Below, piece by piece: positions 11,947 through 51,885 of a stretch of 64,000 nucleotides of DNA. Below the pieces are notes generated by a model. It did not search any database. It was given only the letters and a program-made list of their open reading frames with translations, and was not told the DNA's origin. The stretch is from a virus. Lineage: Duplodnaviria; Caudoviricetes. The position numbers were made by a program, and so were the translations under genes. The first letter of the stretch is position 1. Every line of letters begins with the position of its first letter. The stretch covers positions 32,001-96,000 of the IMG/VR virus record IMGVR_UViG_3300022671_000005; one strand, given 5' to 3'.

Positions 11947-14386
11947 ATACACATCAGCGGATGTACAGACAATTGAAGGGTTGGCTTACGTTCGTCACAG
12001 GGCAGGTGTATACGGTTTCGATGATCAAAAACAACAAGGTCAATTTCAGTTAGTAAAGGAAGTAATTGACAACACAGTTGACGAAGCCACAACAACACCA
12101 AACAAAGATCATGTTACTGATATCATATTTATTAAATATGGCAAAAATTATCAAGTTATAATACATGACACAGGCCGAGGAATCCCATTAGAATCTTTAG
12201 TTCCTTGTTTCACAGTATTAGGAACATCTGGTAAGTGGAATAAAGCTTATTCAGCATCTGTGGGTACTAATGGTATTGGGGCTAAAGCTACAGCAGCATT
12301 ATCTAGAAGATTTTGCGCTATAACTAGAAGGAAAGAAGGTAGCGCAATCGTATCTGTTGATCGTGGTGAAATAATCCATCAGCAAATTAATAAAAAGAAA
12401 ATAACTGATGGTGAACTTTATGGAACTACAGTATTTTACGAACCCGATTCAGACATTCTTGTAGGAACTGACAAATTCTTTGATGAAGATGGTGGATATA
12501 GACAGATTGTAGATCTTATTGAATTTATAGTAGTATTTACAAAGAATCTTACTGTTAGAGTTTGGAATAGTACAAATAGAGTAAAAGATCCTGACATCAT
12601 AGGAAAACCTTTAGATGTATTAAGTAACTTACATAATGTTAAGAAGACCTTATCGTTCGAAGCGTCGTGTAGTTGTACACCGACCGAATACATGCGAAAA
12701 AGGTATGGTCTGACAGCCAAGATTGAGTGGCATAGTGAAACCTTTGAGAAAGTTCTAGATCCAAATGATTCCAATGATGAGTTTGGGTATGAGATAAGTT
12801 TCTTCCTGACTTCAGATTTTAACAAAAGATCTGGTCAACTAATATCTGCAGTTAACATGACTCAGATATATAACAAGTCGGCTGTACATTTAGTGGGATT
12901 TAGAGAAGCTATCAAAGAGCAAATGACAGATTTTATTGACGATTCAGAAATAAGAAATTTCTTTATCGAACAATACAACTTACCATTCCACTCTATTGTT
13001 ATGGCCAAGTATCAAGGAGCAGCATTTAAAGATCAAGATAAAACAAACTTTACTAATGCAAGATTCTTGAAACTTTATAAGGCACATTTAGTAAAGACTT
13101 TTGAAAATCTTGGTAAGAAGTACTGGTTAGATTTATATGAAATGATTGCTGAAGATATTGAAGTTAAATATCACAAATTCAATGATCGTGGATTGAATCT
13201 AAGTGCTTCTATGAAGAACTTAGCGTATAGTTTAAATAAACCTGGATCGTACTGTGCATGTCGTGAAAAAGATCCTAGTAAAATTGAGTTGTTCATGGTT
13301 GAGGGTGATTCAGCTATGACAACCATCAAACAGATATGTGATAGAGACACACAAGCAATATGGATGTCTGGTGGAAAACCAGTAAATCCATTCAAGAAGG
13401 ATTATTCTGTAATTAGAAAGAATTTAGCTTATCAAGATCTTATTAAGATAATAGGTGTTAGTCCAGGAGATACCGATCTGTCTAATATGAATTTTAGCAC
13501 AATAAGCATACTTGCTGACGCTGATCCAGATGGCTATCACATATCGGCATTGATGTTAGGTATTCTTTATAGTATCAATCCACTTATATTGGCAGAGAAA
13601 AGAGTAAGATTATCCACACCCCCTTTGTATATACTAACACATCGTGTCCAACATAAATCATTGTTCGTTCGTGATAAAGCAGCGTTAATGGACGCTAGAT
13701 CAGAAACAGCTAGACGTGTTATAAATATAAAATTAAAGTGTGGAGATACAGAAAGACTATTGGATGAAGAAGAATTTCGTTCAATGTACTATCTTATCCA
13801 TAGGGTTGGAACAACGATAGAATCTGTAGCAAAGCGATTAGCCATACATCCAGGTATTTTAGAAATGTTTATGCATTGTCTACCTCATTTGAAAGGTAGA
13901 ATAGATACCAAAGCTATTGCTAAAAAATTAAATCTTGACTATTGTGGATATAAAGAAGCCAACAATAGTCTAATCATGACTTCAGGTGCAGACGAATTCG
14001 TGGTACCTCTAAATAATGTGGTAAGTGATATCACAGGACTTATCATGCCAGAACTAGGGCCTCTAGCATTCGATAAAATTGAATTACTAATATCAACTAA
14101 ACTAACAGATTTATATAAGAATCAATCAGTTACGTTGATGGAGTTGTATCACACATTCATGCAAGTAAGCGAGTTGTTTAACACCAGCAGAATGAAAGGT
14201 CTTGGCCAAATGCCAAAACACGTTCTGAAACAAACTTGTCTAGATCCAGCCACCAGATCATTTGTTACTTTGACCTCTTTAGGCGATGTCGATGATTTGT
14301 ACCGTGTATTGGGAGTTGATACTCAAGCACGTAAGGATTTAGTGAGTCAGTTTGTTGGAGGTGAAGACGACGATTATTTGTTATAG
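11939..14386 (+). CDS. gyrB: Type IIA topoisomerase B subunit (GyrB/ParE-like)
   Basis: GHKL motifs EVIDNTVDE, DTGRGIP and GTNGIG; TOPRIM motifs VEGDSA and DADPDGYHI; TPPLY; RMKGLGQM. Confidence 0.93.
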   Translation: MAKYTSADVQTIEGLAYVRHRAGVYGFDDQKQQGQFQLVKEVIDNTVDEATTTPNKDHVTDIIFIKYGKNYQVIIHDTGRGIPLESLVPCFTVLGTSGKWNKAYSASVGTNGIGAKATAALSRRFCAITRRKEGSAIVSVDRGEIIHQQINKKKITDGELYGTTVFYEPDSDILVGTDKFFDEDGGYRQIVDLIEFIVVFTKNLTVRVWNSTNRVKDPDIIGKPLDVLSNLHNVKKTLSFEASCSCTPTEYMRKRYGLTAKIEWHSETFEKVLDPNDSNDEFGYEISFFLTSDFNKRSGQLISAVNMTQIYNKSAVHLVGFREAIKEQMTDFIDDSEIRNFFIEQYNLPFHSIVMAKYQGAAFKDQDKTNFTNARFLKLYKAHLVKTFENLGKKYWLDLYEMIAEDIEVKYHKFNDRGLNLSASMKNLAYSLNKPGSYCACREKDPSKIELFMVEGDSAMTTIKQICDRDTQAIWMSGGKPVNPFKKDYSVIRKNLAYQDLIKIIGVSPGDTDLSNMNFSTISILADADPDGYHISALMLGILYSINPLILAEKRVRLSTPPLYILTHRVQHKSLFVRDKAALMDARSETARRVINIKLKCGDTERLLDEEEFRSMYYLIHRVGTTIESVAKRLAIHPGILEMFMHCLPHLKGRIDTKAIAKKLNLDYCGYKEANNSLIMTSGADEFVVPLNNVVSDITGLIMPELGPLAFDKIELLISTKLTDLYKNQSVTLMELYHTFMQVSELFNTSRMKGLGQMPKHVLKQTCLDPATRSFVTLTSLGDVDDLYRVLGVDTQARKDLVSQFVGGEDDDYLL

Positions 14387-14405
14387 TGATGCAAAAAGTA
14401 TATTA

Positions 14406-14435
14406 AGGTATGGTGACCAAATGGTCACCATACCT
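14406..14435. terminator. Inverted repeat, 14-bp stem
   Basis: aggtatggtgacca-aa-tggtcaccatacct. Confidence 0.7.
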
Positions 14436-14471
14436 ATCCTTCTCGTTATAATCTCATCAATAAAACACTAA

Positions 14472-14479
14472 TATATTAC
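14472..14479 (+). promoter_or_regulatory. phiKZ-type early promoter TATATTAC
   Basis: Exact motif upstream of 14532. Confidence 0.7.
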
Positions 14480-14531
14480 TACTACGATGTAGTATATACT
14501 TATTAACCACGATTTATATTTTAGGAGCATA

Positions 14532-15203
14532 ATGGAAACGGTTGAAAGATTTATAGATACTCAGATTGTCTATAGCAACTATTGGATCCATAGTGAACGA
14601 CCTGAAGTTGCAGGTAGACAATTTATTGAAGCTATATTCTACCTTCATTACGCTTGTAATAATTTAACCGGACTTTCTGCATGGAGATCTTACATTAATC
14701 TATTATCTATACTGAGAGTAGCTAGTAGGATTTATTGTGGTGAAAATGTTTCGAAAAAATTGATGAACGTCCTTGAAGGTAGAGATTTGTATGACAATGT
14801 ACATTTTGATGTATTGAGAAGGTTTATTAATACATCCACAAATATGTATGAGAAGATAATTTATGGTTTATTACATAAATCTTTAATATTACATAAGCCT
14901 GACACTTCCTTAATACCTAATAGAGATGAATTTATTTCAGACCTTATGATAATTCTTTCAAAATCTAGAAAGTTTAATATCATCTGCAATCCAGATTCTG
15001 AAATTCAAAACAATCAATACGGTGCAAGTGAATGGTTTGATAGAAATGTTAATAAGTTGAGTACCTATGATTACTACCTTGATGCAACCAAAATATTAAT
15101 GATAACAGACACAATAGTGTTGTCATATATGAAAAGAACAACAAAATTTAAAGAACTTTTTCCTAGTGTTAGGAAAATACAATTGAGAGAACTATACGAT
15201 TGA
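14532..15203 (+). CDS. Hypothetical protein (223 aa)
   Basis: RBS aggag; early promoter upstream. Confidence 0.8.
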   Translation: METVERFIDTQIVYSNYWIHSERPEVAGRQFIEAIFYLHYACNNLTGLSAWRSYINLLSILRVASRIYCGENVSKKLMNVLEGRDLYDNVHFDVLRRFINTSTNMYEKIIYGLLHKSLILHKPDTSLIPNRDEFISDLMIILSKSRKFNIICNPDSEIQNNQYGASEWFDRNVNKLSTYDYYLDATKILMITDTIVLSYMKRTTKFKELFPSVRKIQLRELYD

Positions 15204-15233
15204 TCACTAATAACACAATATAGGTAACGCAAT

Positions 15234-15689
15234 ATGAGAGTGAATCCACAACCACATGTGGAATCTTCTATAACGAAGAACTTTCTTGCTTCTTTGAACA
15301 GCGTCAAAGCAGAAGGTATTCCTAATAGAAATCTACATGGTGAGCTTCTCTTTACTAAGGAAGATGTGATGGCTTCTAGAGATGAGCTTACACAATTATT
15401 AAGGGCAATGTGTTTTGAGAAAGGTATGACTAAACAGTATGTTACAGAGAAATACCGATCCTACGCCCATGATGTTTTACAAGAAGTTCCAAAGAAAATA
15501 CCAACAGGTGCAGGGAACTTGTTGCATGCAATCAAACGAGACCCAGTGTCATTCAAAACATTTGTAAAATTATTTGCTTGTGTTTTGAATTATAAGTTTG
15601 ATCTGACTGTTACTATGACAGATCCAGATGGTAAAACTGAAGAGTTTAATTACGTCCAAACTATGGAGAGAATAGTTAACTCTGAATAA
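15234..15689 (+). CDS. Hypothetical protein (151 aa)
   Basis: ORF followed by a hairpin. Confidence 0.75.
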   Translation: MRVNPQPHVESSITKNFLASLNSVKAEGIPNRNLHGELLFTKEDVMASRDELTQLLRAMCFEKGMTKQYVTEKYRSYAHDVLQEVPKKIPTGAGNLLHAIKRDPVSFKTFVKLFACVLNYKFDLTVTMTDPDGKTEEFNYVQTMERIVNSE

Positions 15690-30031: not shown

Positions 30032-30156
30032 GGTATAATTCACTCTATTATAAATGTTAATATTTACAGTAACGTCTGTGTGAAGCCATTTTATTGAATA
30101 GATACTTAAAAAAATTACCAATTAATAAAACAACCATGTCACTGGAGATATATACA

Positions 30157-32712
30157 ATGGCAGAAGAGAATAATAAAGAAGCAATTAGGCGTTGGTCTAG
30201 AATTTTTTCACTATTTGGTGTCAATAAAGAGACTCCAACTAATCAACAACCTAATCCATCAAATGACTTGTCCGCACCTTTATCGTCTGGAGCTTTTAGT
30301 AATCAAGAACTTGAATACCTTCCAGGGTTTGCAGCATCTAAAACAGATTCGACTAAGATAAGTCATATTGAAACTTATCTCAACAGAACTTCAGATAACG
30401 TTGTTCAAAGAACTAGAGAGATCCAAAGATTTAAAGTTCTTACTCCTGAAATTGGTAAGGCTAAGATGGTTCTTGTTCCAACTATCATGTCTCCAAATGA
30501 TGTTCAGACGGACAGCATTGCTATCACTGTTGATTGTGATGATATAGAACCAGAAACCGCAATGGACCTTGCTAATGACCTGACAACCTATTTTAATGAT
30601 CATCTTAAGCTTAGCACTAAAGTAGCAGATTGGATAGGTGAGGCACTATTTGAGTCCGGAGCCAAACCAGTTCTTATTTTGCCTAAAGGACCCATATCTT
30701 TACTTACTGATGCGATGGATCTAGAAAAAGAGCTAGCTAAAGAAGGTAAAGTTCTAGGTGTAGGTATGGAAAACATATCTATAAAAATGGAAGGTTACAA
30801 TGATGTTAATATAAGTGAAGAATCTTTAGAGTTAAATTTAATAGACAATGAAGATTTGAATATCTTAGACATTGACATTGAAGATGCCATTACTGATCAG
30901 TTTGCTGACCTTATGGATGAAGATAGTAAAATTAAGACTTCAGTAGAGTCCATGGTCAAAGCGGCAAAAGATAATAAAAAGAAGGTTAATGAGAGGGTAA
31001 AAGATGTCTTCACATTTACCACTGATTATAGATCTATCATGTCTGGTAAGGACACGAAGGATTCTAAAGTAAAAACTCTGACGAAAAGAGTTGCTCAAAG
31101 TTTATATGGCTCAGCTGGTGGTAGATTATTTATTGGTAGTGATGAGGGTGATCTAAAAGATGGAGACCATCCGACACTTATACCTTTACCTTCCGAATCC
31201 GTGATACCTGTAGCTGTACCTGGGAGTCCTTCTGAACATATAGGATATTTCATTCTAACCGATGGATTTGGTAACCCCATTGATGAGACAGGCACTGGCG
31301 ATGCAGCTAGTCCTTACCATAGCACTAATAAGAGTAAATCTTCTTGTAATGCTACTTTGAATGAGGGTACTCAAATCATATATGGTGGTTCTTTTGGTAG
31401 TGACAATATTACTAAAAACCAACAGTTTGAAGCAGCTTCCACAGTGTTTGGTATCACTATAAGAAAAATGCTTGAAGAAAAACTTAGAGATAATGATCTT
31501 GAAGGTATTACCCTAAAACAACATCAAGCTATCATGACTACGTTGTTTCAAAGACTTATCAGAAAAGCAAAGGTTAGAATCTTATTTGTACCCTCAACTA
31601 TGGTTGCTTATTATGCTTTCGGTTATCGTCCAGACGGAACAGGTAAGTCTATACTGGAAGATAGTTCTTTCCTCATTTCATTGCGTAACACTATGGTTAT
31701 AGCTAATGTTTTGACAGCTATTAAGAACTCAACTGATAGAACTCGAATTGAGTTTAATGTTGGTGATCAAGCCACAAACGTTGAGCAAATAATGGACACT
31801 GTTAAAAAGATGTTTGTATCTAAACGGATGCTTAACTTCGAACACGATCCATTAACTGTCGCACGAGATCTTATTCAAAACTCAGTATCCATTATCCCAA
31901 AAGGTCTAAGAGGTCTTGAAGATTTGGATGTACAAACTGACAATGCAGGTGGCTCTAATTCCACTGAACCAGATACTGACATGATGGATAAAATGTCAGA
32001 GTTAGTTACACTCAGTATGGGTATTCCTCCATCTGCATTAAATAGGTTGAGTGAAGATGAATATTCTAGATCTATAGCAACTACTAATTTATTCTTTGCT
32101 AATGAAGTAAGGATGAAGCAGCTAGTTGTTACAGAAACTACCACCCAGTTGGTTAGACAGTATATCTATACATCTAAAGAATTAATGACTAAGATTATAG
32201 ATATTCTTAAGATAACTAATAAGTCTGATAAAACTGATGTTGATGCTAATGATGACACTGTCAATTCTGACAATCTTGAGAACCAGACTGATGATAAGAT
32301 TTCTAAAGTTGAAGATGTTCTTTATAAGGTTATCAATGGTGTTAGTGTTAATCTCCCAACTCCAACTATTGCTGCAACTAAAGCACAATATGAAGAGTTA
32401 AGGGAAGCTGTAGATGCAGTGGATCAATTGGTCGACAAACTCTTTGACGAGGAGACTATTGGTGTTGATGATAACGAGACTAAAGAAGCTTATAATGCTA
32501 TGAAAGGATTCGTTAGACAGTTAGTACTCAGAAAGATTGCAGCTGAGTTAGGACCTCACGGAGCTATAAATATACCTAGCATTAATAACATAGATCAAGA
32601 TGAAATAGCGGACTTCAATCAAGCCATTATTAACTTCAAACGTCAATTGTCAGACATGAAGAAAAGTCTAGACAAGAAAGTTGAAGAAGAGGGTGGTGGA
32701 AGTAGATGGTAA
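30157..32712 (+). CDS. Portal protein (phiKZ gp129-like; start corrected from 30094)
   Basis: TIMSPND, ESVIPVAVPGSPSEHIGYFILTDGFGNP, GTGKSILED; ggag RBS before ATG 30157. Confidence 0.8.
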   Translation: MAEENNKEAIRRWSRIFSLFGVNKETPTNQQPNPSNDLSAPLSSGAFSNQELEYLPGFAASKTDSTKISHIETYLNRTSDNVVQRTREIQRFKVLTPEIGKAKMVLVPTIMSPNDVQTDSIAITVDCDDIEPETAMDLANDLTTYFNDHLKLSTKVADWIGEALFESGAKPVLILPKGPISLLTDAMDLEKELAKEGKVLGVGMENISIKMEGYNDVNISEESLELNLIDNEDLNILDIDIEDAITDQFADLMDEDSKIKTSVESMVKAAKDNKKKVNERVKDVFTFTTDYRSIMSGKDTKDSKVKTLTKRVAQSLYGSAGGRLFIGSDEGDLKDGDHPTLIPLPSESVIPVAVPGSPSEHIGYFILTDGFGNPIDETGTGDAASPYHSTNKSKSSCNATLNEGTQIIYGGSFGSDNITKNQQFEAASTVFGITIRKMLEEKLRDNDLEGITLKQHQAIMTTLFQRLIRKAKVRILFVPSTMVAYYAFGYRPDGTGKSILEDSSFLISLRNTMVIANVLTAIKNSTDRTRIEFNVGDQATNVEQIMDTVKKMFVSKRMLNFEHDPLTVARDLIQNSVSIIPKGLRGLEDLDVQTDNAGGSNSTEPDTDMMDKMSELVTLSMGIPPSALNRLSEDEYSRSIATTNLFFANEVRMKQLVVTETTTQLVRQYIYTSKELMTKIIDILKITNKSDKTDVDANDDTVNSDNLENQTDDKISKVEDVLYKVINGVSVNLPTPTIAATKAQYEELREAVDAVDQLVDKLFDEETIGVDDNETKEAYNAMKGFVRQLVLRKIAAELGPHGAINIPSINNIDQDEIADFNQAIINFKRQLSDMKKSLDKKVEEEGGGSRW

Positions 32713-42475: not shown

Positions 42476-42498
42476 GATTATAGAGACACTGTCTCGTT

Positions 42499-42529
42499 CC
42501 ATCACTGCTAGCTATGCTAGCAGTGATGG
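42499..42529. terminator. Inverted repeat, 14-bp stem
   Basis: ccatcactgctagc-tat-gctagcagtgatgg followed by gtttt. Confidence 0.75.
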
Positions 42530-42697
42530 GTTTTCATTCCAATTGTATTTGATTTATTATTTTTATTATTACTGGTAACTAATAATGTATAATAGATACA
42601 CGCTAGTATCTCTTTTTTGCAGCTACGGTGTATAGTTAAATAGTGGAGCTATTTTATAGTTAATAAAACACTTAACCTCTAAGGAGTCGGATTTGTT

Positions 42698-44041
42698 ATG
42701 AAAATACTTTGTATTACTAAAAGAACTCCAAGAGACCTAATGTGTTTCGACACTACATATTCAGACTACAATACTGTCAAATCTGACATAGATATCAATA
42801 CCGTAATTGATATCATTGTTGTTGATGAAGTAGAAGAAACAGTTTACATTGCCAACCTTTCAAAAATGCTTTTGCAACAACCAGAAGTAATGGCAGCTGC
42901 TGATTACACAGAGCTTGAAAGTGTGTTAGATGAAGGTCTTCTGGTAGCATATAAAACCAAGTCATATATTCCAAAACAGAGATTCACAATAGATTCTGGT
43001 AAACTTAAACTTATTGCCAACACTACTGATATCTTAGGTTTGGATATTGACTTAACCTATTATCACATGAGAGACATGGTCTCTCCAAAGATAGTATCTG
43101 CATCCCATTCAACATTATTAACTGAATCATATGGGACTATTTCCAACCCATCTCTTAGGAATGTTCTATTTCTCAGAAATAGATTGAGAGATCTCATATT
43201 TACTCATAAGAATCAAGTGGGTGAAAAGGCAGTTAATTTTGCAAACACTATACCTTCCATTTCTGGTAAGATACATTACCCCATCGTATTTGAAGATGAG
43301 TTGTATGTCAAAGATGGTACTAAGTCATTGAAGAATGTTCCAGAAGGTGGGATGGGAAATGTGTTAATAGATTTTACACCTGTTGGCGATATAGATATAG
43401 TTAGGTTCCCTGATTGTGAAAAGATCGCACATCCTGCACAAACGATCATTAGAATGCCAGAAGGAAAATCCTTTAAGGATAAGACTGCATTGTTTGTAGT
43501 GGCTGGTAGATTTGTAATGAGTTCAGAATTCAGGATAATGGATGAGAGATCATTTGTATTTAATCCATGGGCGTTTCCTCTTAAGAATATTATCTTATCC
43601 AATAAGGCTATACTGGGTGAGAAAATAGAGGGTACTATGCTCTACCAGGACACCAACCCTGAAGGGACTTTTGAAGTAGAAATGATGGATGATGATAACT
43701 ATGAGAATTTCATTATACTCATTGATAATCCTACTTGTGAATTTTACATGTTGAATATGAAAATGGTTGTTAGGCCTAATGTTCTCAAATTCCCTCCTTT
43801 CACAGGAGGTGTGTTAATTAAGAACATGACTCGTGAGATAATTGATTATTCTCTTGAGTTAGAATCTGATCAAACTATAGTTTATCTTGCTCCAACACAA
43901 CCTTTAAATAGAATGACAAATGAAGTAGAAAACAATATGCACAATATTGCATATCAAACCAGTAATGTTCCCGACTTCAATCATTCTATAAACGACAAGG
44001 ATGATGGTTACACAGTAATTGACATCGTTGCAGAAGGGTAA
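42698..44041 (+). CDS. Hypothetical protein, probably virion (447 aa)
   Basis: aaggag RBS; first gene of the protease operon. Confidence 0.7.
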   Translation: MKILCITKRTPRDLMCFDTTYSDYNTVKSDIDINTVIDIIVVDEVEETVYIANLSKMLLQQPEVMAAADYTELESVLDEGLLVAYKTKSYIPKQRFTIDSGKLKLIANTTDILGLDIDLTYYHMRDMVSPKIVSASHSTLLTESYGTISNPSLRNVLFLRNRLRDLIFTHKNQVGEKAVNFANTIPSISGKIHYPIVFEDELYVKDGTKSLKNVPEGGMGNVLIDFTPVGDIDIVRFPDCEKIAHPAQTIIRMPEGKSFKDKTALFVVAGRFVMSSEFRIMDERSFVFNPWAFPLKNIILSNKAILGEKIEGTMLYQDTNPEGTFEVEMMDDDNYENFIILIDNPTCEFYMLNMKMVVRPNVLKFPPFTGGVLIKNMTREIIDYSLELESDQTIVYLAPTQPLNRMTNEVENNMHNIAYQTSNVPDFNHSINDKDDGYTVIDIVAEG

Positions 44042-44044
44042 ATT

Positions 44045-44722
44045 ATGTCTAATAACAAATATTTTAAGAAAGTAAAGGATAGTTTAATCTTTATAGGAAA
44101 TACACTTGATGTCTATATACCGGTTAGGTATGGGCAACATGGATGCTTAGATATTTCTGAAAGTGTAATTGCATTAGGTATTTTTGATATGACCATAAAT
44201 GGTAATATCGAAAGTGGTATGATGATTCCTGCTAAGATTAAAATGAAACCCAATGATATAAACAGTATGTTGTTGAATGGTGAACGTTATCAGAAGCTAA
44301 CATTTTTGAAAGACGATATCGTTATCCACGATACTCATGTAGTCAAAGATGAACATATAGCTTATGTAATGTTTTATGAGTTTATATTTAGTGGCAAAGC
44401 TCCTAAATTTCTAACTTATGAAAAACTAGGTTTTATATTTGAAAAGGCTGTTGAAGTTACAGGAATTAAGTTCCCAACTAACATGGCTGTATTCGAAATG
44501 ATGATATCTGCATTACATAGAGATCCAGAGGATCTTACTAAGTTCTACAGACTGACCAACATGAAAAAGAAACCTTTGCAAATTCCTATGAGATCAGTTG
44601 CACATGCTGCTACATCAACTACCACTAAGATAGTTGGATCTTATGACAATGAAGGATATGATGCGGCTCTTGTTAATGCTGCTGAAACATCTAGTGAAAT
44701 TGAGAATTTGCTCCGCAATTAA
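44045..44722 (+). CDS. Virion RNA polymerase beta' C-terminal subunit (phiKZ gp176/SPN3US gp244-like)
   Basis: VFEMMISALHR and ATSTTTKIVGSYDNEGYDAALV parallel RpoC HIEVIVRQMLR and [20 protein letters not shown]; adjacent to the prohead protease as in relatives. Confidence 0.7.
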   Translation: MSNNKYFKKVKDSLIFIGNTLDVYIPVRYGQHGCLDISESVIALGIFDMTINGNIESGMMIPAKIKMKPNDINSMLLNGERYQKLTFLKDDIVIHDTHVVKDEHIAYVMFYEFIFSGKAPKFLTYEKLGFIFEKAVEVTGIKFPTNMAVFEMMISALHRDPEDLTKFYRLTNMKKKPLQIPMRSVAHAATSTTTKIVGSYDNEGYDAALVNAAETSSEIENLLRN

Positions 44723-44760: not shown

Positions 44761-45606
44761 ATGTCTAATGTAGTTTTTTCAGTACAGACTCTTAGGACAG
44801 ATTCTGGTGGTACACTTAAGTGTGTTAAACCTAATTCTGACGGAGTTTATTGTGACGTACCTGTAGCCGTTGTAGGTATTCCTTCTAGGAATAGAGCAGT
44901 ATACGACATGCAGAGTACATTAGCAGCTATGTCTGATCCTTCAACCAGATTCTACAAGAATCTCTCAGAAGGAAATCTTGAAGGTGAGTGGGGTCATCCA
45001 GAACTATCACCTATCATGACAAAGCAAGATAAAATCAATGCAATTATGAGAACTCTCAAGATCGATAGGTCTATGGTATCTCATTACTTCACCAAGATCA
45101 GAACTGAGCAGTCTAGAGATGGACAATTTGTTATTGTTTATGCTGACGTTGTATGCTTCGGTCCTTATGGTAAATATCTAGAACAATCATTTGCAGATCC
45201 AAAGCGAAATACTTGTTTCTCATTGAGGTCTTTAACAAGTGATCCATCACCACTACCCGATGGCAACACTATCAAGAAGATGAAACTCCTTGTCACATTT
45301 GATGCTGTTGATGGTCCTGGATTTGAGATGGCTGGTAAGCGTTACATGAACATAGATAATGAATCATATGAAATTGAAGACAGTCAACTCATAGAAGCAT
45401 CTGTTAATGAGATAATTCAATTCCCAGACTTTGCCAAAGTAGTTGGATATGAATCTATCACATCACAAGAAATCTTAGACATCTTTGAAGCAGATAAAGT
45501 CTGTATAGAAAGAGAGTTTACGATTGAAGGTGTTTTTGATCCAGATAAGAATACCATTGTAACACCTGATGGACCCAAATCTGTGTTCCACACACTGTTT
45601 AATTAA
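44761..45606 (+). CDS. Prohead (head maturation) protease, phiKZ gp175/T4 gp21 family
   Basis: GEWGHP (His), FSLRS (Ser), TFDAVDGPG (Asp). Confidence 0.9.
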   Translation: MSNVVFSVQTLRTDSGGTLKCVKPNSDGVYCDVPVAVVGIPSRNRAVYDMQSTLAAMSDPSTRFYKNLSEGNLEGEWGHPELSPIMTKQDKINAIMRTLKIDRSMVSHYFTKIRTEQSRDGQFVIVYADVVCFGPYGKYLEQSFADPKRNTCFSLRSLTSDPSPLPDGNTIKKMKLLVTFDAVDGPGFEMAGKRYMNIDNESYEIEDSQLIEASVNEIIQFPDFAKVVGYESITSQEILDIFEADKVCIEREFTIEGVFDPDKNTIVTPDGPKSVFHTLFN

Positions 45607-45620
45607 AGGAGTATATTGTA

Positions 45621-46214
45621 ATGAAAATTCAAACACATATGCTTCCTAGACAATCCATTTTAAACCCTTCTATTAGTCGTACCCCTATGACTGGTGGTGG
45701 GTTTAAATGGACTATTTTGATTGATAACGATATTGTTAGTCCAGAGTATTACACATTGGCTTGTCAGGTACTACTGTCAGCAGAAGAAAGCGATGTTGTA
45801 TACATGCCAATAAACACACATGGTGGTAGTGTAGCATCTGGTCTTGCAATCACTGATGCAATGCAAAGAAGTAAGGCAAAGGTAATAACTGATGTTGTTG
45901 GTTATGCTTATTCTTGTGGTGCCATGATTTGGTCATTTGGTGATGAACTTCGTATGGGGAAATATGCTCGCATCATGTTTCATTCGAGTTCACATATGGC
46001 ATATGGTAAGAGTGCCACTATTGCTGAAGAAGCAGACCATCTAGTTGAAGGTATGAAATATCTAATGGATCGAATTGTTAAACGTGGAGTTCTAACTCAA
46101 GAAGAGAGAGACCGATGTTTTGACAGCAAATTAGATGTATACTTCAATTATAATCAACTTAAAGATAGACTTGAAGGTCTCAAGGATATCCCAAGAGATG
46201 AGGTATATCAATGA
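45621..46214 (+). CDS. clpP: ClpP-like serine protease (S14)
   Basis: INTHGGSV, AYSCGA (Ser), IMFH (His), DVYF (Asp). Confidence 0.88.
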   Translation: MKIQTHMLPRQSILNPSISRTPMTGGGFKWTILIDNDIVSPEYYTLACQVLLSAEESDVVYMPINTHGGSVASGLAITDAMQRSKAKVITDVVGYAYSCGAMIWSFGDELRMGKYARIMFHSSSHMAYGKSATIAEEADHLVEGMKYLMDRIVKRGVLTQEERDRCFDSKLDVYFNYNQLKDRLEGLKDIPRDEVYQ

Positions 46215-47041
46215 AATTCGATATATTAACAGGTTTATCACCTTTAAATAATGTTGTACCTGAGAATGAACCTTCCGTAGAAAATCTACATGGTGAAGGT
46301 GATATCTCTGACCTTATGGTTACATCTATGAATAATCTTGTTTCTGTTGATGATCTTGAAACTGAGGAGAAAGAGGTTTCAACTGAATCTATAGATGTTG
46401 ATATTTCAATAGAATCTTTAAATACTGACGAAACAGCAAATGCTGTTCCTTCCAATAGTGTAAAGAAAGCTCTTCAGAAGTTACAACAGGCTACTGGATT
46501 AAATTTTGACCAACCACAGCCTAAGCCCCCACCATCAATTCATATTGATAAAGGGGTATGCAGAGCTTACTTACAAGGTATGTGTTATTTGACACTTGCT
46601 CCTCTTATACACCTTCTTGCAAACGGTGCTAAGGATGACAAGTTTGTCATTGAAATAGATTTACCATATCTATCTACTTCAGATTGTATTACACTAGCAT
46701 CAACTATTGAACATTGTGAAAGTTATGTTACTGTAGCAGTTAGACGTATCCAATCTACAGAGACCTTTATGTTACTTGAGGTAGCTGACGAAGCTCATAT
46801 TGCACCTAACGTTCATGTTGTTGGTCCTATGACTGGATTTACAATAGGTACTTCTGTTGATATGTCAAATACTACAGAAGCATTCAAAGAGCATGAACAG
46901 TATGTTCAAGAACTTCTTAAAGATAACGGGTTCTTCACCGAAGATCAGCTGGAAGAGATTAATACTAAAGCTAAATCAGTTAGATTCACAACAGAAGAAC
47001 TTCTTTCAAGACTTAAAAAAGAAGAAGTGTCTGAAGATTAA
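46211..47041 (+). CDS. Degenerate ClpP paralogue with acidic N-terminal extension
   Basis: C-terminal ~160 aa is colinear with the adjacent ClpP (GFFTEDQ vs GVLTQEE, SVRF vs DVYF, ELLSRL vs QLKDRL); catalytic His/Asp absent; ATGA overlap. Confidence 0.6.
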   Translation: MKFDILTGLSPLNNVVPENEPSVENLHGEGDISDLMVTSMNNLVSVDDLETEEKEVSTESIDVDISIESLNTDETANAVPSNSVKKALQKLQQATGLNFDQPQPKPPPSIHIDKGVCRAYLQGMCYLTLAPLIHLLANGAKDDKFVIEIDLPYLSTSDCITLASTIEHCESYVTVAVRRIQSTETFMLLEVADEAHIAPNVHVVGPMTGFTIGTSVDMSNTTEAFKEHEQYVQELLKDNGFFTEDQLEEINTKAKSVRFTTEELLSRLKKEEVSED

Positions 47042-47068
47042 TTTCGTTGTTATCACACACATATATAT

Positions 47069-47102
47069 CTACATAGTGGAGGATATATCCTCCACTATGT
47101 AG
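47069..47102. terminator. Perfect 34-bp palindrome
   Basis: ctacatagtggaggata|tatcctccactatgtag followed by gttttt. Confidence 0.75.
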
Positions 47103-47167
47103 GTTTTTACAGTATCTAGATATTTTATAAATATAACGTAATATTTAAAACTTAATGAGAACTACAA

Positions 47168-49285
47168 ATGATATTATACGACAAAGACATATTAGAACAA
47201 AGATGTACTATACATTATGGGACGAGAAATTTATCATTTATTAAAATGTCCTATCTGCTAAGGCAGATGGGAGTTAAAAACAATAAATTCATGTTAGCAC
47301 TTATTGATCCTTCTTTACAAGGCGTCGATCCTCATAGTCCAGATCTTACAGAAGAGCAGATGGCTAGAATTGCTATAGAGTGCAAAATTAATCCGTGGTA
47401 TTTCTTCAGAGAAGTTATACGAGTTGCACAACCTGGTGCAGAACCTGTAATGTATATTTTAAACAGAGCTAATTTGGCTTTGATATGGTTACATTTAAAT
47501 AGTGTCGATACATTCCTTACCATGCCACGACAGATTGGTAAAACCATCGGTGTTCAGGGTTTAATGACATACAAGATATTTATCATGGGTAAGAACATCA
47601 ACGTTGGATTGTTTGCTAAAGATAATGATCTTCGTACGGAAAACGTATCTCGTTTAAAAGAGTTACGAAATGCCCTCCCTAGATACCTTTTTAAGGTTGG
47701 TCCTAAGTATAATACAGACAACCAAGAAGGATTGGTCTACAAACCTTTTAAGACCAAATATATCACATTTGTTTCTCAAAAAGATAAACGTAGTGCTGCT
47801 GGTCAAGGTCGTGGTCAAACCTTCACAGATGAGCATTGGGATGAGTTTGGTTATTATACTAACAACCATCTGTCATACCCGTCAGCTAAAGCCGCAACTG
47901 ATACAGCTCAACCTCTAGCTAGGGAAAGTGGGATACCTTGCGCTAATATCATGACTACAACTGCTGCTATGTTGGAAGACCCTGCTGGTATGTATGCACA
48001 TGGTATTAAATGTGATGCCTTGAGATTCTCAGAATTACTTTACGACTGTAAGGATAATGATGAACTTAAAAGATTAGTGGACTCTGGTTCTGATGGTGGA
48101 ATGGTCTATATTGAGTTTAGTTATAAACAACTAGGTAAAGATGATGCGTGGTTGAAAAGAGTGTCTCGCGGTAAAACTCAAGATGAAATAGATAGGGATT
48201 ATCTTAACATCTGGACACATGGTTCAGCTGGTTCTCTCATCAATACTGAAGTTCTTAAGAGACTTAAGTTGAGCGCTATAGAACCCCTATATACTGAGAT
48301 TAAAGAAGACTTAATAGTTCGTTGGTATGTTGATAGTAAAACAAGGAAATCTCAAGAGTTTATATCTAAACCTTATATCTTGGCATCAGATACTGCTGAC
48401 AATGTTGGTAGAGATGCAACATCATTGGTTATGATAGATCCTGCTACTATGGAAGTACTAATGGTTTGCAAGAGTAATCAGAGTAGTTTGGCACATGTTG
48501 TTCTAGTTGTTGTAGATCTGTTAAGAACTTTTAATAGAACTATCTTTATTCCAGAAAGAAATAAAGGTGGAGCATTCTTGGTTGACATGGTCCTACATGC
48601 CCTTAAAGATGATAGATCATTTAACCCGTGGTCTAGGATATATAATACACATCATCAAGACTATAGTAGTAAGTCTCCCGACTGTAGAAGACTAGATCTC
48701 AATTCTGGTAGTATTAGAAAGATGTTTGGATTCACAACTACTGCTTCTGAAACATCTAGAAAGCTTTTATATCAATCCATATTTACAACTGTTGTTAATA
48801 GAAATGTCGATAGGATACATGACAGTACTTTGATAGATGAGATAAGTGGTATTACTGTAGATCCTAAGGGTAGAATAGATCACACCTCAGACTCACATGA
48901 TGATGTATTGATAGCCTACCTTATTGGTTGTTGGTTTATCATGTATGGTAGAAACCATCATATGTATGGAATAAGAGAGAATGAAATACTTCAAGACTTC
49001 TCTGTAGACAGTGCTGATGTCGATCCTGTCACTAGGGAAAGAAATGCATCTGCTAAAAAGAGAATGAAATATCTTGAAGAGATGCTCTCTACTTCAGACA
49101 TATCAGATATGATCAGAAGAGCGTTTGAGAAAGAATTGAATTATCTTAAACGAATACTACCTTCTAAGGGTAGTGGTGATGATATCATAAGTCTTAAGCA
49201 AGTCAAAGAAGAAAGTGATAGACTTAAAGTTGAAGTCGTTAAGAACCAAGACTTTACTTCTTCATTGCAACACATAAGGTTTTAA
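47168..49285 (+). CDS. terL: Terminase large subunit (phiKZ gp25-like)
   Basis: ECKINPWYFFRE, Walker A PRQIGKT, Walker B HWDE, nuclease ASDTADNVGRD and HDDVLIA. Confidence 0.92.
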   Translation: MILYDKDILEQRCTIHYGTRNLSFIKMSYLLRQMGVKNNKFMLALIDPSLQGVDPHSPDLTEEQMARIAIECKINPWYFFREVIRVAQPGAEPVMYILNRANLALIWLHLNSVDTFLTMPRQIGKTIGVQGLMTYKIFIMGKNINVGLFAKDNDLRTENVSRLKELRNALPRYLFKVGPKYNTDNQEGLVYKPFKTKYITFVSQKDKRSAAGQGRGQTFTDEHWDEFGYYTNNHLSYPSAKAATDTAQPLARESGIPCANIMTTTAAMLEDPAGMYAHGIKCDALRFSELLYDCKDNDELKRLVDSGSDGGMVYIEFSYKQLGKDDAWLKRVSRGKTQDEIDRDYLNIWTHGSAGSLINTEVLKRLKLSAIEPLYTEIKEDLIVRWYVDSKTRKSQEFISKPYILASDTADNVGRDATSLVMIDPATMEVLMVCKSNQSSLAHVVLVVVDLLRTFNRTIFIPERNKGGAFLVDMVLHALKDDRSFNPWSRIYNTHHQDYSSKSPDCRRLDLNSGSIRKMFGFTTTASETSRKLLYQSIFTTVVNRNVDRIHDSTLIDEISGITVDPKGRIDHTSDSHDDVLIAYLIGCWFIMYGRNHHMYGIRENEILQDFSVDSADVDPVTRERNASAKKRMKYLEEMLSTSDISDMIRRAFEKELNYLKRILPSKGSGDDIISLKQVKEESDRLKVEVVKNQDFTSSLQHIRF

Positions 49286-50793: not shown

Positions 50794-51885
50794 TTACATC
50801 TCGTACTGTTTTGCAACAGTGAGGAGAATTTTAGTATAGTCATTTGCATAAGAGCCGATAGTGCGAAGGGTTTTACCAGCAAGCTTACGATTAGCTTTGA
50901 TTTCTTTAGCTTTATCTTTTGAACCTTCTTCGTCTTCCTTTGAAACTTTCTTGGCAGCTTCTTTGAGTTTCTTTTCGATACTCTTAGCTTCAATCATAAC
51001 TTGAACAAGCTCTGTAGTTACTTTAGAAGCACCAACAATAGCAGCTTTGTTCCAACCAGCACGTTCCAACGTCATTTTGGAAATCCAACCGAAGTCAGAC
51101 AGAACATACTTTTTACCATTCCAAACGAAACCAGCTTTCTTCATAAGGTCAGTAACCTTTTTAGCTGCATCATTGTCAAACTCTTCCAAATTGTCAAACA
51201 TGGATTTCAATGCTTCCTTACTAGAACCCATGACATCCATGTAAGCTTTAGAAGTGACAAGCATCATTTTCTTGTCGGTATTTTTCGGCTGATCACGAAG
51301 ACCTTTGCCAACAATTTCTTTAATCTTAGAAGCACGTGCTTCTATAGAATTCAGAACTACAACAAGGTAAGCAATGGCTGCCAAGTATATAGCGATAGCC
51401 ACTGCTATAAAGAATACTTCTTCTGAAACTTCGGTTTTGTCTAATTCGAGTGTAGCTACAGCTTCATCAAACTCTTTCTTTTCAACTTTCTCAATAAGAG
51501 TGGCGATCTGCTCAGCAGCTACCTTAGTATTGGTAACATCAATACCAACTTGTGCAAGGGCTTCACTGTAGTGATTCAAGAGACTCTTATCGTCTTCGAG
51601 TTCAACCTTAAGAAGGCTTTCACGAATGCTTGAGATTTCTTCAATCTGTTCCATCTTTTCAAAAGTAGTGATAAGAACATTATCTGCACTTTGAATCTGA
51701 AGAGCAAGAGCATCCATATCAGCTTCATCTAATTTGGATTTAGATTCCACAATCTCTGCAATCTTAGCTTTAGTAGATTCGATGGAAGCTTCCAATTCAG
51801 CAACAGCTGCTTTCTGTTCTTCTGAAAGAACAATTGCATTTTCATCTTTGAGGGATTCTAGACTTTCAAAACTAATAGTAGTCAT
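50794..51885 (-). CDS. Internal head protein with acidic propeptide
   Basis: Acidic N-terminal half with S/A-x-E motifs (SFE, SLE, SIE, AAE, SEE); basic C-terminal half. Confidence 0.6.
   Translation of the reverse strand: MTTISFESLESLKDENAIVLSEEQKAAVAELEASIESTKAKIAEIVESKSKLDEADMDALALQIQSADNVLITTFEKMEQIEEISSIRESLLKVELEDDKSLLNHYSEALAQVGIDVTNTKVAAEQIATLIEKVEKKEFDEAVATLELDKTEVSEEVFFIAVAIAIYLAAIAYLVVVLNSIEARASKIKEIVGKGLRDQPKNTDKKMMLVTSKAYMDVMGSSKEALKSMFDNLEEFDNDAAKKVTDLMKKAGFVWNGKKYVLSDFGWISKMTLERAGWNKAAIVGASKVTTELVQVMIEAKSIEKKLKEAAKKVSKEDEEGSKDKAKEIKANRKLAGKTLRTIGSYANDYTKILLTVAKQYEM

Follow-up and report, generated by a model that had tools for sequence, protein, structure and literature searches.

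Introduction

Head proteases of the S80/gp21 type, such as T4 gp21 and phiKZ gp175, act inside assembled proheads. Many phage ClpP/SppA-type enzymes are likewise prohead proteases and need no ATPase, while ClpP subunits act only as rings, in which dead subunits of the ClpR type co-assemble with active ones. In this study, we analyzed a locus in which relatives of these proteins are encoded side by side. It lies in a stretch of 64,000 nucleotides (positions 32,001 to 96,000 of the IMG/VR record IMGVR_UViG_3300022671_000005), which is called the window below and to which coordinates refer unless stated otherwise; features are located on the plus strand if no strand is given. Here, the genes for an S80 prohead protease of the phiKZ gp175/SPN3US gp245 type (open reading frame [ORF] 1, 44761–45606, 281 amino acids [aa]), an active-type ClpP (ORF2, protein A, 45621–46214, 197 aa) and a degenerate ClpP-fold protein with a long acidic N-terminal extension (ORF3, protein B, named pseudo-ClpP, 46211–47041, 276 aa) follow each other on the same strand. 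A reading of this DNA from its letters only (the sequence-only reading) had proposed that ClpP and pseudo-ClpP form a complex which is targeted into the prohead by the extension and activated upon maturation. All parts of this interpretation that sequences can test were confirmed, and comparative evidence in the form of synteny, a conserved site and a calibration of the motif strengthens it. We therefore consider it probable, with modest confidence, that a ClpP/pseudo-ClpP complex is packaged into the head and trimmed by the S80 protease.

The S80 proteases gp175 of phiKZ and gp245 of SPN3US have been described to strip long N-terminal propeptides from internal proteins as well as from the capsid and portal proteins, frequently with more than one cut per propeptide, and to remove their own C-terminal peptide (PMC5694885, PMC10052503). 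SPN3US gp245 cuts after A-X-E, and the documented sites of phiKZ gp175 include SLE-13 and SQE-122 (PMC5694885, PMC10052503), which fit the S/A/G-x-E consensus given for gp175 in the sequence-only reading. The S80-cut inner-body, ejection, capsid and portal proteins of phiKZ, 201phi2-1 and SPN3US resemble pseudo-ClpP in having an N-terminal propeptide or propeptide-like region with several S/A/G-x-E sites. In contrast to the present case, with a second protease complex as the proposed cargo, the accessible text of these reports names no ClpP-family protein among the cleaved or packaged proteins (PMC5694885, PMC10052503). In SPN3US, too, a degenerate maturation protease has been retained: gp117 is described as a diverged and possibly inactive paralogue of gp245 (PMC5694885). 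Unlike pseudo-ClpP, however, gp117 copies the S80 enzyme, and its gene is not coupled to that of an active partner.

In the ClpP/ClpR cores of cyanobacteria, plastids and apicoplasts (7EKO), an active ClpP and a non-catalytic ClpP-fold subunit are encoded together, as are ClpP and pseudo-ClpP, which would also be expected to share one ring. In subunit 7eko_A of the Chlamydomonas core, Thr occupies the position of the catalytic His, as read from the alignment. Pseudo-ClpP differs from ClpR in that it is probably non-orthologous, has no cognate ATPase, is encoded in a likely head-gene operon and carries a long acidic N-terminal extension with predicted phage head-protease sites. Two adjacent clpP paralogues are also known from the bacterial ClpP1/ClpP2 hetero-tetradecamers of Mycobacterium, Listeria, Streptomyces and Pseudomonas, but in most of these systems the triad is intact in both subunits and ClpX or ClpC is the partner, whereas here one is predicted to be dead and no phage unfoldase is encoded. 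The ClpP/SppA-type prohead proteases (lambda gpC-like) share the ClpP fold, act in procapsids without an ATPase and often possess C-terminal targeting or scaffold extensions, but they are the sole head protease of their phages, whereas the ClpP described here stands beside an assemblin-like S80 protease and a dead partner. Full-text literature searching found neither a phage ClpP/ClpR-like pair nor a packaged ClpP, in agreement with the sequence-only reading, which knew of no described equivalent. The components, i.e., S80 protease, phage ClpP, ClpR-like dead subunit and S80 propeptides, are all of known kinds, but their combination is new.

Results

An Active-Type ClpP Is Coupled to a ClpP-Fold Protein Lacking Catalytic Residues

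The ORF2 product matched PF00574 with 68.2 bits (curated cut-off 20.2, E-value 1.1e-18) and 97 solved ClpP sequences at E ≤ 1e-3. Its best PHROG was phrog_1827 (6.8e-32), but it also matched the prohead-protease families phrog_1684 (4e-23), phrog_94 (1.5e-19), phrog_2976 and phrog_133, with E-values spanning 4e-23 to 9e-13. Alignment with the solved ClpPs placed the catalytic triad at Ser98 (45912–45914), His121 (45981–45983) and Asp172 (46134–46136) and the oxyanion loop at THGG (G68-G69). The complete triad noted in the sequence-only reading is thus present, and judged by these residues ORF2 is a catalytically competent ClpP-family peptidase. In seven related loci (see below), Ser and His of the active ClpP were kept in all seven and Asp in six, with Asn in the remaining one (L017).

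The start codon of ORF3 lies inside the stop codon of ORF2, and the ATGA start/stop overlap (46211–46214) reported before was read directly from the sequence. Pseudo-ClpP consists of an N-terminal extension (aa 1–108, 46211–46534), which is acidic, mostly disordered and propeptide-like, and a non-catalytic ClpP-fold domain (aa 109–276, 46535–47041). As pseudo-ClpP had no Pfam or PHROG match and BLASTP of ClpP against it gave none either, the paralogy of the two proteins was shown through profiles and structure. hhalign aligned the pseudo-ClpP domain to ClpP with 99.2%, and the structural model matched ClpPs in Foldseek and VIA (best structures 8xon, 9if4, 9ndj and 4ryf, all from bacterial ClpP1/ClpP2 systems) and contained the complete ClpP fold including the handle helix. 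The best PDB match of the family profile (A2) was 7eko_A, the Chlamydomonas chloroplast Clp core subunit, with an E-value of 0.017. Furthermore, the second genes of distant loci bridge the two families, as they were matched by the window ClpP in phmmer with 2e-6 to 2e-11.

The hhalign alignment also confirmed the loss of the GG loop, His and Asp that had been noticed before: PYL replaces HGG, with Y153-L154 in place of GG, G205 replaces the His and S256 the Asp. The window protein still has Ser182, but in the family columns neither a His nor an Asp is conserved and the Ser column is variable; in the distant second-gene proteins, Ser is kept while His and the GG loop are gone. By its residues, pseudo-ClpP is a catalytically dead ClpP-fold protein. 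In the A2 family of 28 sequences, Cys125 and His134 (46583–46612) show a conservation of at least 90%. They were considered for an alternative active site but rejected in this role, since the two residues map to the non-catalytic ClpP positions I38 and Q49 and are absent from distant pseudo-ClpPs.

In a quick maximum-likelihood tree with long branches, which was calculated without plastid and cyanobacterial ClpR sequences, all pseudo-ClpPs formed one group (Shimodaira-Hasegawa-like approximate likelihood ratio test [SH-aLRT] 98) and were joined with the active ClpPs of the lineage (SH-aLRT 93), apart from the ClpPs of ICP1, PVP-SE1, RAS14 and J2-1. This fits an origin of pseudo-ClpP as an old duplicate of ClpP made inside this phage lineage rather than as a descendant of ClpR. 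The likeness to ClpP/ClpR hetero-oligomers drawn in the sequence-only reading is therefore taken as a functional analogy rather than as descent, because pseudo-ClpP groups with the adjacent phage ClpP. Pseudo-ClpP evolves faster than its partner, with 55–75% identity among homologues compared to 77–89% for ClpP; only three of these pairs were each tied to a shared contig, and solely by equal contig size. In one member of the pseudo-ClpP family (P0011, 377 aa), the acidic extension is preceded by an additional N-terminal domain of about 130 residues.

The Three-Gene Order Is Conserved in Related Phages

A scan of IMG/VR with an alignment of the S80 protease yielded seven loci (L015–L021) on six contigs besides that of the window, and three of these contigs are 236–238 kb in size and at least 90% complete. 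The genes for the S80 protease, an active-type ClpP and a second ClpP-like protein were adjacent and in this order in all seven loci, down to a pseudo-ClpP identity of 24%; the neighbourhood is thus conserved. At the junction of ClpP and pseudo-ClpP, the relatives had an overlap of 4 or 11 nucleotides (nt) or a gap of 15–24 nt. Upstream, a gene for a 225-aa protein directly preceded the S80 gene in six of the seven loci and was located upstream with a gap in L017. Downstream, a terminase gene was found 3′ of the module within the 5-kb flank in four loci (L015, L017–L019), but not within this flank in L016, L020 and L021. Homologues of ClpP and pseudo-ClpP apparently also share three Logan contigs, as inferred solely from equal contig sizes (5529, 7120 and 2584). 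Scans of viral contigs with the queries A1, P0008 and ClpP returned nothing, and the query A5 returned only a known contig. From the gene coupling and the invariable adjacency, we infer that ClpP and pseudo-ClpP co-assemble.

Phage ClpPs have also been interpreted differently. The comparative survey by Iyer et al. treats the ClpP of jumbo phages as a probable anti-host protease (PMC7824862). In this case the phage ClpP, alone or with its dead copy, would be a cytoplasmic protease that docks on the ClpX, ClpA or ClpC of the host and redirects proteolysis, and the acidic extension would be a regulatory lid, decoy or adaptor rather than a capsid-targeting propeptide. In agreement with the statement of the sequence-only reading that the window contains no Clp ATPase, no Clp-type AAA+ (AAA_2) gene was present in four genomes of the lineage, three of which are at least 90% complete. 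This result fits ATPase-independent work, but it also makes a host unfoldase the natural partner of a canonical ClpP.

The gene context of other phage ClpPs points in the direction of host takeover, too. The closest ClpPs of cultured phages (phrog_1827; ICP1, rV5/PVP-SE1-like phages, phiTE and Pseudoalteromonas phages) have 27–34% identity to the window ClpP, and those of ICP1, PVP-SE1 and J2-1 are each encoded by one gene next to PhoH and DNA-metabolism genes, with neither an adjacent dead partner nor an S80 gene alongside. The ICP1 (L027:1507-2487), PVP-SE1 (gp151, L028:1465-2394) and J2-1 (L029:1447-2517) proteins, annotated as 'ATP-dependent Clp protease', comprise 309–356 aa with a ClpP domain and an acidic C-terminal extension of 130–170 residues, and their genes are located one to four genes after a PhoH-like gene. 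In the cultured giant Vibrio phage sm033 (vB_VpaM_sm033, OV032902.1), a 160-aa degenerate ClpP annotated as hypothetical (L013:5166-6157, OV032902.1 210165-211156, 17.9 bits) is encoded immediately before clpP1. Neither sm033 protein is extended, and the pair is located next to RNA polymerase and helicase genes, 56 kb away from the S80 gene of this phage; it may represent a second, non-head pair of ClpP and pseudo-ClpP. The sm033 protein was not accepted as a member of the pseudo-ClpP family, as the hhalign probability was 2% and its placement inside the pseudo-ClpP group of the tree, on a very long branch of 2.93, was not trusted. Likewise, the gene following the ClpP gene of Stenotrophomonas phage RAS14 is not a pseudo-ClpP homologue, and RAS14 gave no S80 match.

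Several features of the loci studied here oppose a function in host takeover. The pair directly follows the S80 gene in every locus and is situated in a head-gene block, with the terminase gene next where it was found, and the extension contains conserved S80-type sites whose motif recurs in the processing regions of the capsid, portal-like and S80 proteins (see below). In addition, the extension of about 108 residues, of which about 40 would remain after a cut at E68, or the ClpP tail in the relatives, may hinder docking of an unfoldase. We therefore regard host takeover as rather unlikely.

The Acidic Extension of Pseudo-ClpP Resembles Regions Processed by Head Proteases

The first 80 residues of pseudo-ClpP contain 19 D/E compared to two K/R, and the predicted local distance difference test (pLDDT) values of this region are 41–71. 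The extension ends in a helix (aa 82–95) and a PKPPP stretch. Three S-x-E motifs are located within aa 22–68, namely S22-V23-E24 (PSVE|NL, 46274–46282) in a partly conserved column, S57-T58-E59 (VSTE|SI, 46379–46387) and S66-I67-E68 (ISIE|SL, 46406–46414), all of which are candidate S80 sites. The acidic extension of about 80 aa with SVE, STE and SIE described in the sequence-only reading was thus verified, and the fold starts only after about aa 108. The alignment of the pseudo-ClpP family comprised 33 sequences, 32 of them with an N-terminus. In 30 of these 32, an [S/A/G]-x-E motif is present at one aligned slot just before the fold, which corresponds to SIE68 in the window. It is nearly always followed by x-[L/M/I/F], while the flanks drift. 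The extension has two other recurring elements, G-x-L-V-x-V-E-x-L and, close to its N-terminal end, P-S-x-E-N-L.

The extended motif [SAG]xEx[LMIVF] occurred 2.72 times per extension compared to 0.58 ± 0.13 times in 1000 composition-preserving shuffles (maximum 1.06), which corresponds to a 4.7-fold enrichment. Per 100 aa, the extensions contain 2.7 such motifs, compared to 0.50 for the fold domain and 0.42 for the contig's entire set of ORFs with at least 150 aa. Within the contig, the densest clusters, with four sites in 80 residues, were those of a 408-aa protein and of the capsid N-terminus; pseudo-ClpP has three sites per 80 residues and is tied with five other ORFs, including the portal-like protein.

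The S80 protease itself was identified with 130.6 bits for PF20034 (curated cut-off 23.4, E-value 6.5e-38) and 4.4e-37 for phrog_3014. The blocks GEWGH79PE, FSLRSLT (S154/S157) and TFD181AVD are invariant between the window protein and that of L003, and they lie close to the positions of the catalytic residues H77, S153 and D178 of SPN3US gp245, to which they may correspond. In six of the seven S80 proteins of the lineage, [S/G]-x-E followed by S/T and then I/L/V/K is found at approximately residues 220–231. In the window this is VGYE|SI, and G229-Y230-E231 (VVGYE|SI, 45445–45453) is a candidate C-terminal self-cleavage site.

Similar clusters are present in head proteins of this phage. The very diverged major capsid protein (719 aa, contig 109342–111501, L022:11342-13498, phrog_3231 with 7.6e-11) has five S/A/G-x-E sites in its first 153 aa and four in the other 566, and LSTE153|SF is the likely maturation cut. 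In the portal-like virion protein (872 aa, 30094–32712, phrog_3004), the [SAG]-x-E cluster at 224–285 (VGME|NI, SEE|SL and SVE|SM) suggests a propeptide of about 250–285 residues, similar to that of the SPN3US portal protein gp81. The 408-aa protein (contig 14157–15383, L023:14157-15380) has its four extended motifs in 80 residues from position 40 and no PHROG match, and it is a candidate for a packaged protein. Because such sites also occur in the capsid, the portal-like protein and the C-terminal region of the S80 protease, the pseudo-ClpP extension looks like those of this phage's own processed head proteins, and the conserved sites suggest that it is packaged and trimmed by the S80 protease.

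Alternatively, S/A/G-x-E-x-L and G-x-L-V-x-V-E-x-L might be docking or regulatory motifs unrelated to the S80 protease, in an extension that is never removed. Such a role would agree with the shortness of the motif and the acidity of the region, with the short beta strands at residues 35–37 and 43–45 in the AlphaFold2 model, which could be a binding element, and with the hydrophobic P2′ residue, which is not among the features reported for the gp175/gp245 logos (PMC10052503). However, this extended motif also marks the C-terminal site of the S80 protease and is clustered in residues 1–153 of the capsid protein and 224–285 of the portal-like protein, and the phiKZ and SPN3US homologues of these capsid and portal-like regions are described as cleaved (PMC5694885, PMC10052503). 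We consider docking motifs a very doubtful explanation.

Some of the active ClpPs of the relatives are extended as well. In L016 and L018–L021 (e.g., L016:5829-6794, L018:5811-6692, L019:5810-6976 and L020:5850-6926), the ClpP fold ends with A/S-T-E|G/A-L and is followed by a tail of 100–190 aa that is acidic, Gly/Ser/Pro-rich and of low complexity; the L019 tail consists almost purely of G/S/E/D/K repeats. These tails recall the ClpP/SppA-type prohead proteases. By their sequences, both partners would carry a removable tail in these relatives, whereas in the clade of the window only the dead partner would. The active ClpPs of the window clade (including P0030–P0036) instead have the conserved C-terminal tail RLE-x-L-(K/R/Q)-(D/N)-IPRDE-(V/G)-Y, possibly a docking motif or a site that has degenerated. 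Its RLE-x-L part aligns with the A/S-T-E-G-L site of the distant relatives.

The distribution of these tails also bears on the question whether the two proteins work together at all. The dead copy could be a stand-alone head-internal or scaffold-like structural protein, for example a ring-shaped core, and the active ClpP could have an unrelated job. Consistent with this, every dead copy bears the propeptide-like extension, whereas the active copy of the window clade is devoid of one, the dead copy evolves faster, and with SPN3US gp117 there is a described precedent for a diverged, possibly inactive paralogue of a prohead protease (PMC5694885). On the other hand, the gene pair is tightly coupled and never apart on any contig examined, the active ClpP of several relatives has its own site and acidic tail, so that both proteins appear to have the same destination, and the full ClpP fold including the handle helix is kept, as expected of a ring partner. 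A stand-alone structural role of pseudo-ClpP thus seems quite improbable.

Genomic Setting of the Module

The IMG/VR phage contig from which the window derives has a size of 142 kb and an estimated completeness of 55%. The large terminase subunit (47168–49285, phrog_32359 and phrog_2) has 35.6% identity to the large terminase of Erwinia phage Ea35-70 and is related to those of giant phages of the phiKZ group, and the contig also encodes a tail sheath of the phiKZ type, a DNA polymerase and virion proteins. The DNA thus stems from a giant phage which is uncultured and has its relatives in the phiKZ group. Ea35-70 has an S80 protease but no ClpP. For a 537-aa ORF near the end of the contig, an identity as chimallin could not be confirmed, and it had no PHROG match.

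The three genes are likely the last ones of a five-gene head operon. The unit, comprising the genes for a 447-aa protein, a 225-aa protein, the S80 protease, ClpP and pseudo-ClpP, is bracketed by two hairpins. The first one (42498–42530) is terminator-like, with a stem of 14–15 bp containing a perfect 14-nt inverted repeat and a following T run, and is the likely 5′ boundary; the second one is a palindrome with 24-nt arms followed by TTTTT (47062–47109), which likely marks the end of the unit before the terminase gene. The 447-aa protein (42698–44041) had no Pfam or PHROG match, but phmmer matches were found at the same position in L016–L021. The 225-aa protein (44045–44722) is a virion structural protein (phrog_2926, E-value 1.2e-47). 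Further downstream and on the minus strand, a 363-aa protein without a PHROG match is encoded (50794–51885), whose N-terminus (MTTISFE|SLE|SLKDEN...ASIE|ST) contains three S-x-E sites in 36 residues, followed by a long coiled Lys/Glu-rich part and a hydrophobic stretch. It is probably another head-internal protein processed by the S80 protease.

Discussion

The data can be combined to the following model. ClpP and pseudo-ClpP would be co-translated by virtue of their gene coupling and form mixed rings of the ClpP type. The extension of pseudo-ClpP would serve as a capsid-targeting propeptide, by which the complex reaches the core of the prohead. As the head matures, the extension would be cut by the S80 protease after S/A/G-x-E, a motif that occurs three times in the window copy, with SIE68|SL as the conserved site. 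The chamber thereby set free, which would need no ATPase, might then digest unstructured propeptide and scaffold fragments released by the S80 protease to peptides small enough to leave the shell before DNA is packaged. A clean-up role of this kind is speculative and less likely than the presence of a packaged, S80-processed complex as such. The more specific idea of a self-compartmentalized ClpP-type protease that is unmasked by the S80 protease in the immature capsid, forming a two-protease cascade of a site-specific cutter and a chambered peptide shredder, is possible but clearly tentative. Ejection of the complex into the host, which the sequence-only reading had offered as another option, is unlikely for an assembled 14-mer of about 300 kDa that would have to pass through the tail tube, and by this size argument a function within the prohead is more plausible.

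Several points weigh against a packaged complex. In the absence of an unfoldase, the substrates of ClpP are restricted to peptides that are short or unstructured, and the same restriction would apply to a function in the head. The S/A/G-x-E motif is short and lies in an acidic Ser-rich region, so that the case for S80 sites is based on its enrichment and on the conserved column rather than on its presence as such. No S/A/G-x-E site is found in the active ClpP of the window clade, since Arg occupies P3 in its RLE-x-L tail. The sm033 pair shows that such pairs need not be head proteins, and in their survey Iyer et al. favor an anti-host function for the ClpPs of jumbo phages (PMC7824862). Finally, the module was not found in cultured phages, either by blastn with the module or by tblastn with pseudo-ClpP against 50,697 phage records, and a search for fused ClpP/pseudo-ClpP forms of 661–2000 aa, which was a weak one, found none.

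The maturation of tailed-phage and herpesvirus heads is generally attributed to one dedicated protease. If a ClpP/pseudo-ClpP complex is indeed packaged and trimmed, there would be a second layer of proteolysis inside the capsid, provided by a ClpP-type chamber in which a dead subunit serves for targeting. Should the two proteases indeed act as a cascade, this would be the first ClpP/ClpR-like heterocomplex of a virus and the first capsid-internal protease cascade. The packaged complex would also represent a natural case of a pseudoenzyme subunit serving as a delivery and regulatory handle and an independent viral reinvention of the ClpP/ClpR arrangement of plastids. The proteins are small and easily expressed and the prediction names the exact cleavage sites, which allows the idea to be tested directly. 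For the jumbo phages in general, the locus cautions against annotating every ClpP as an anti-host 'ATP-dependent protease'.

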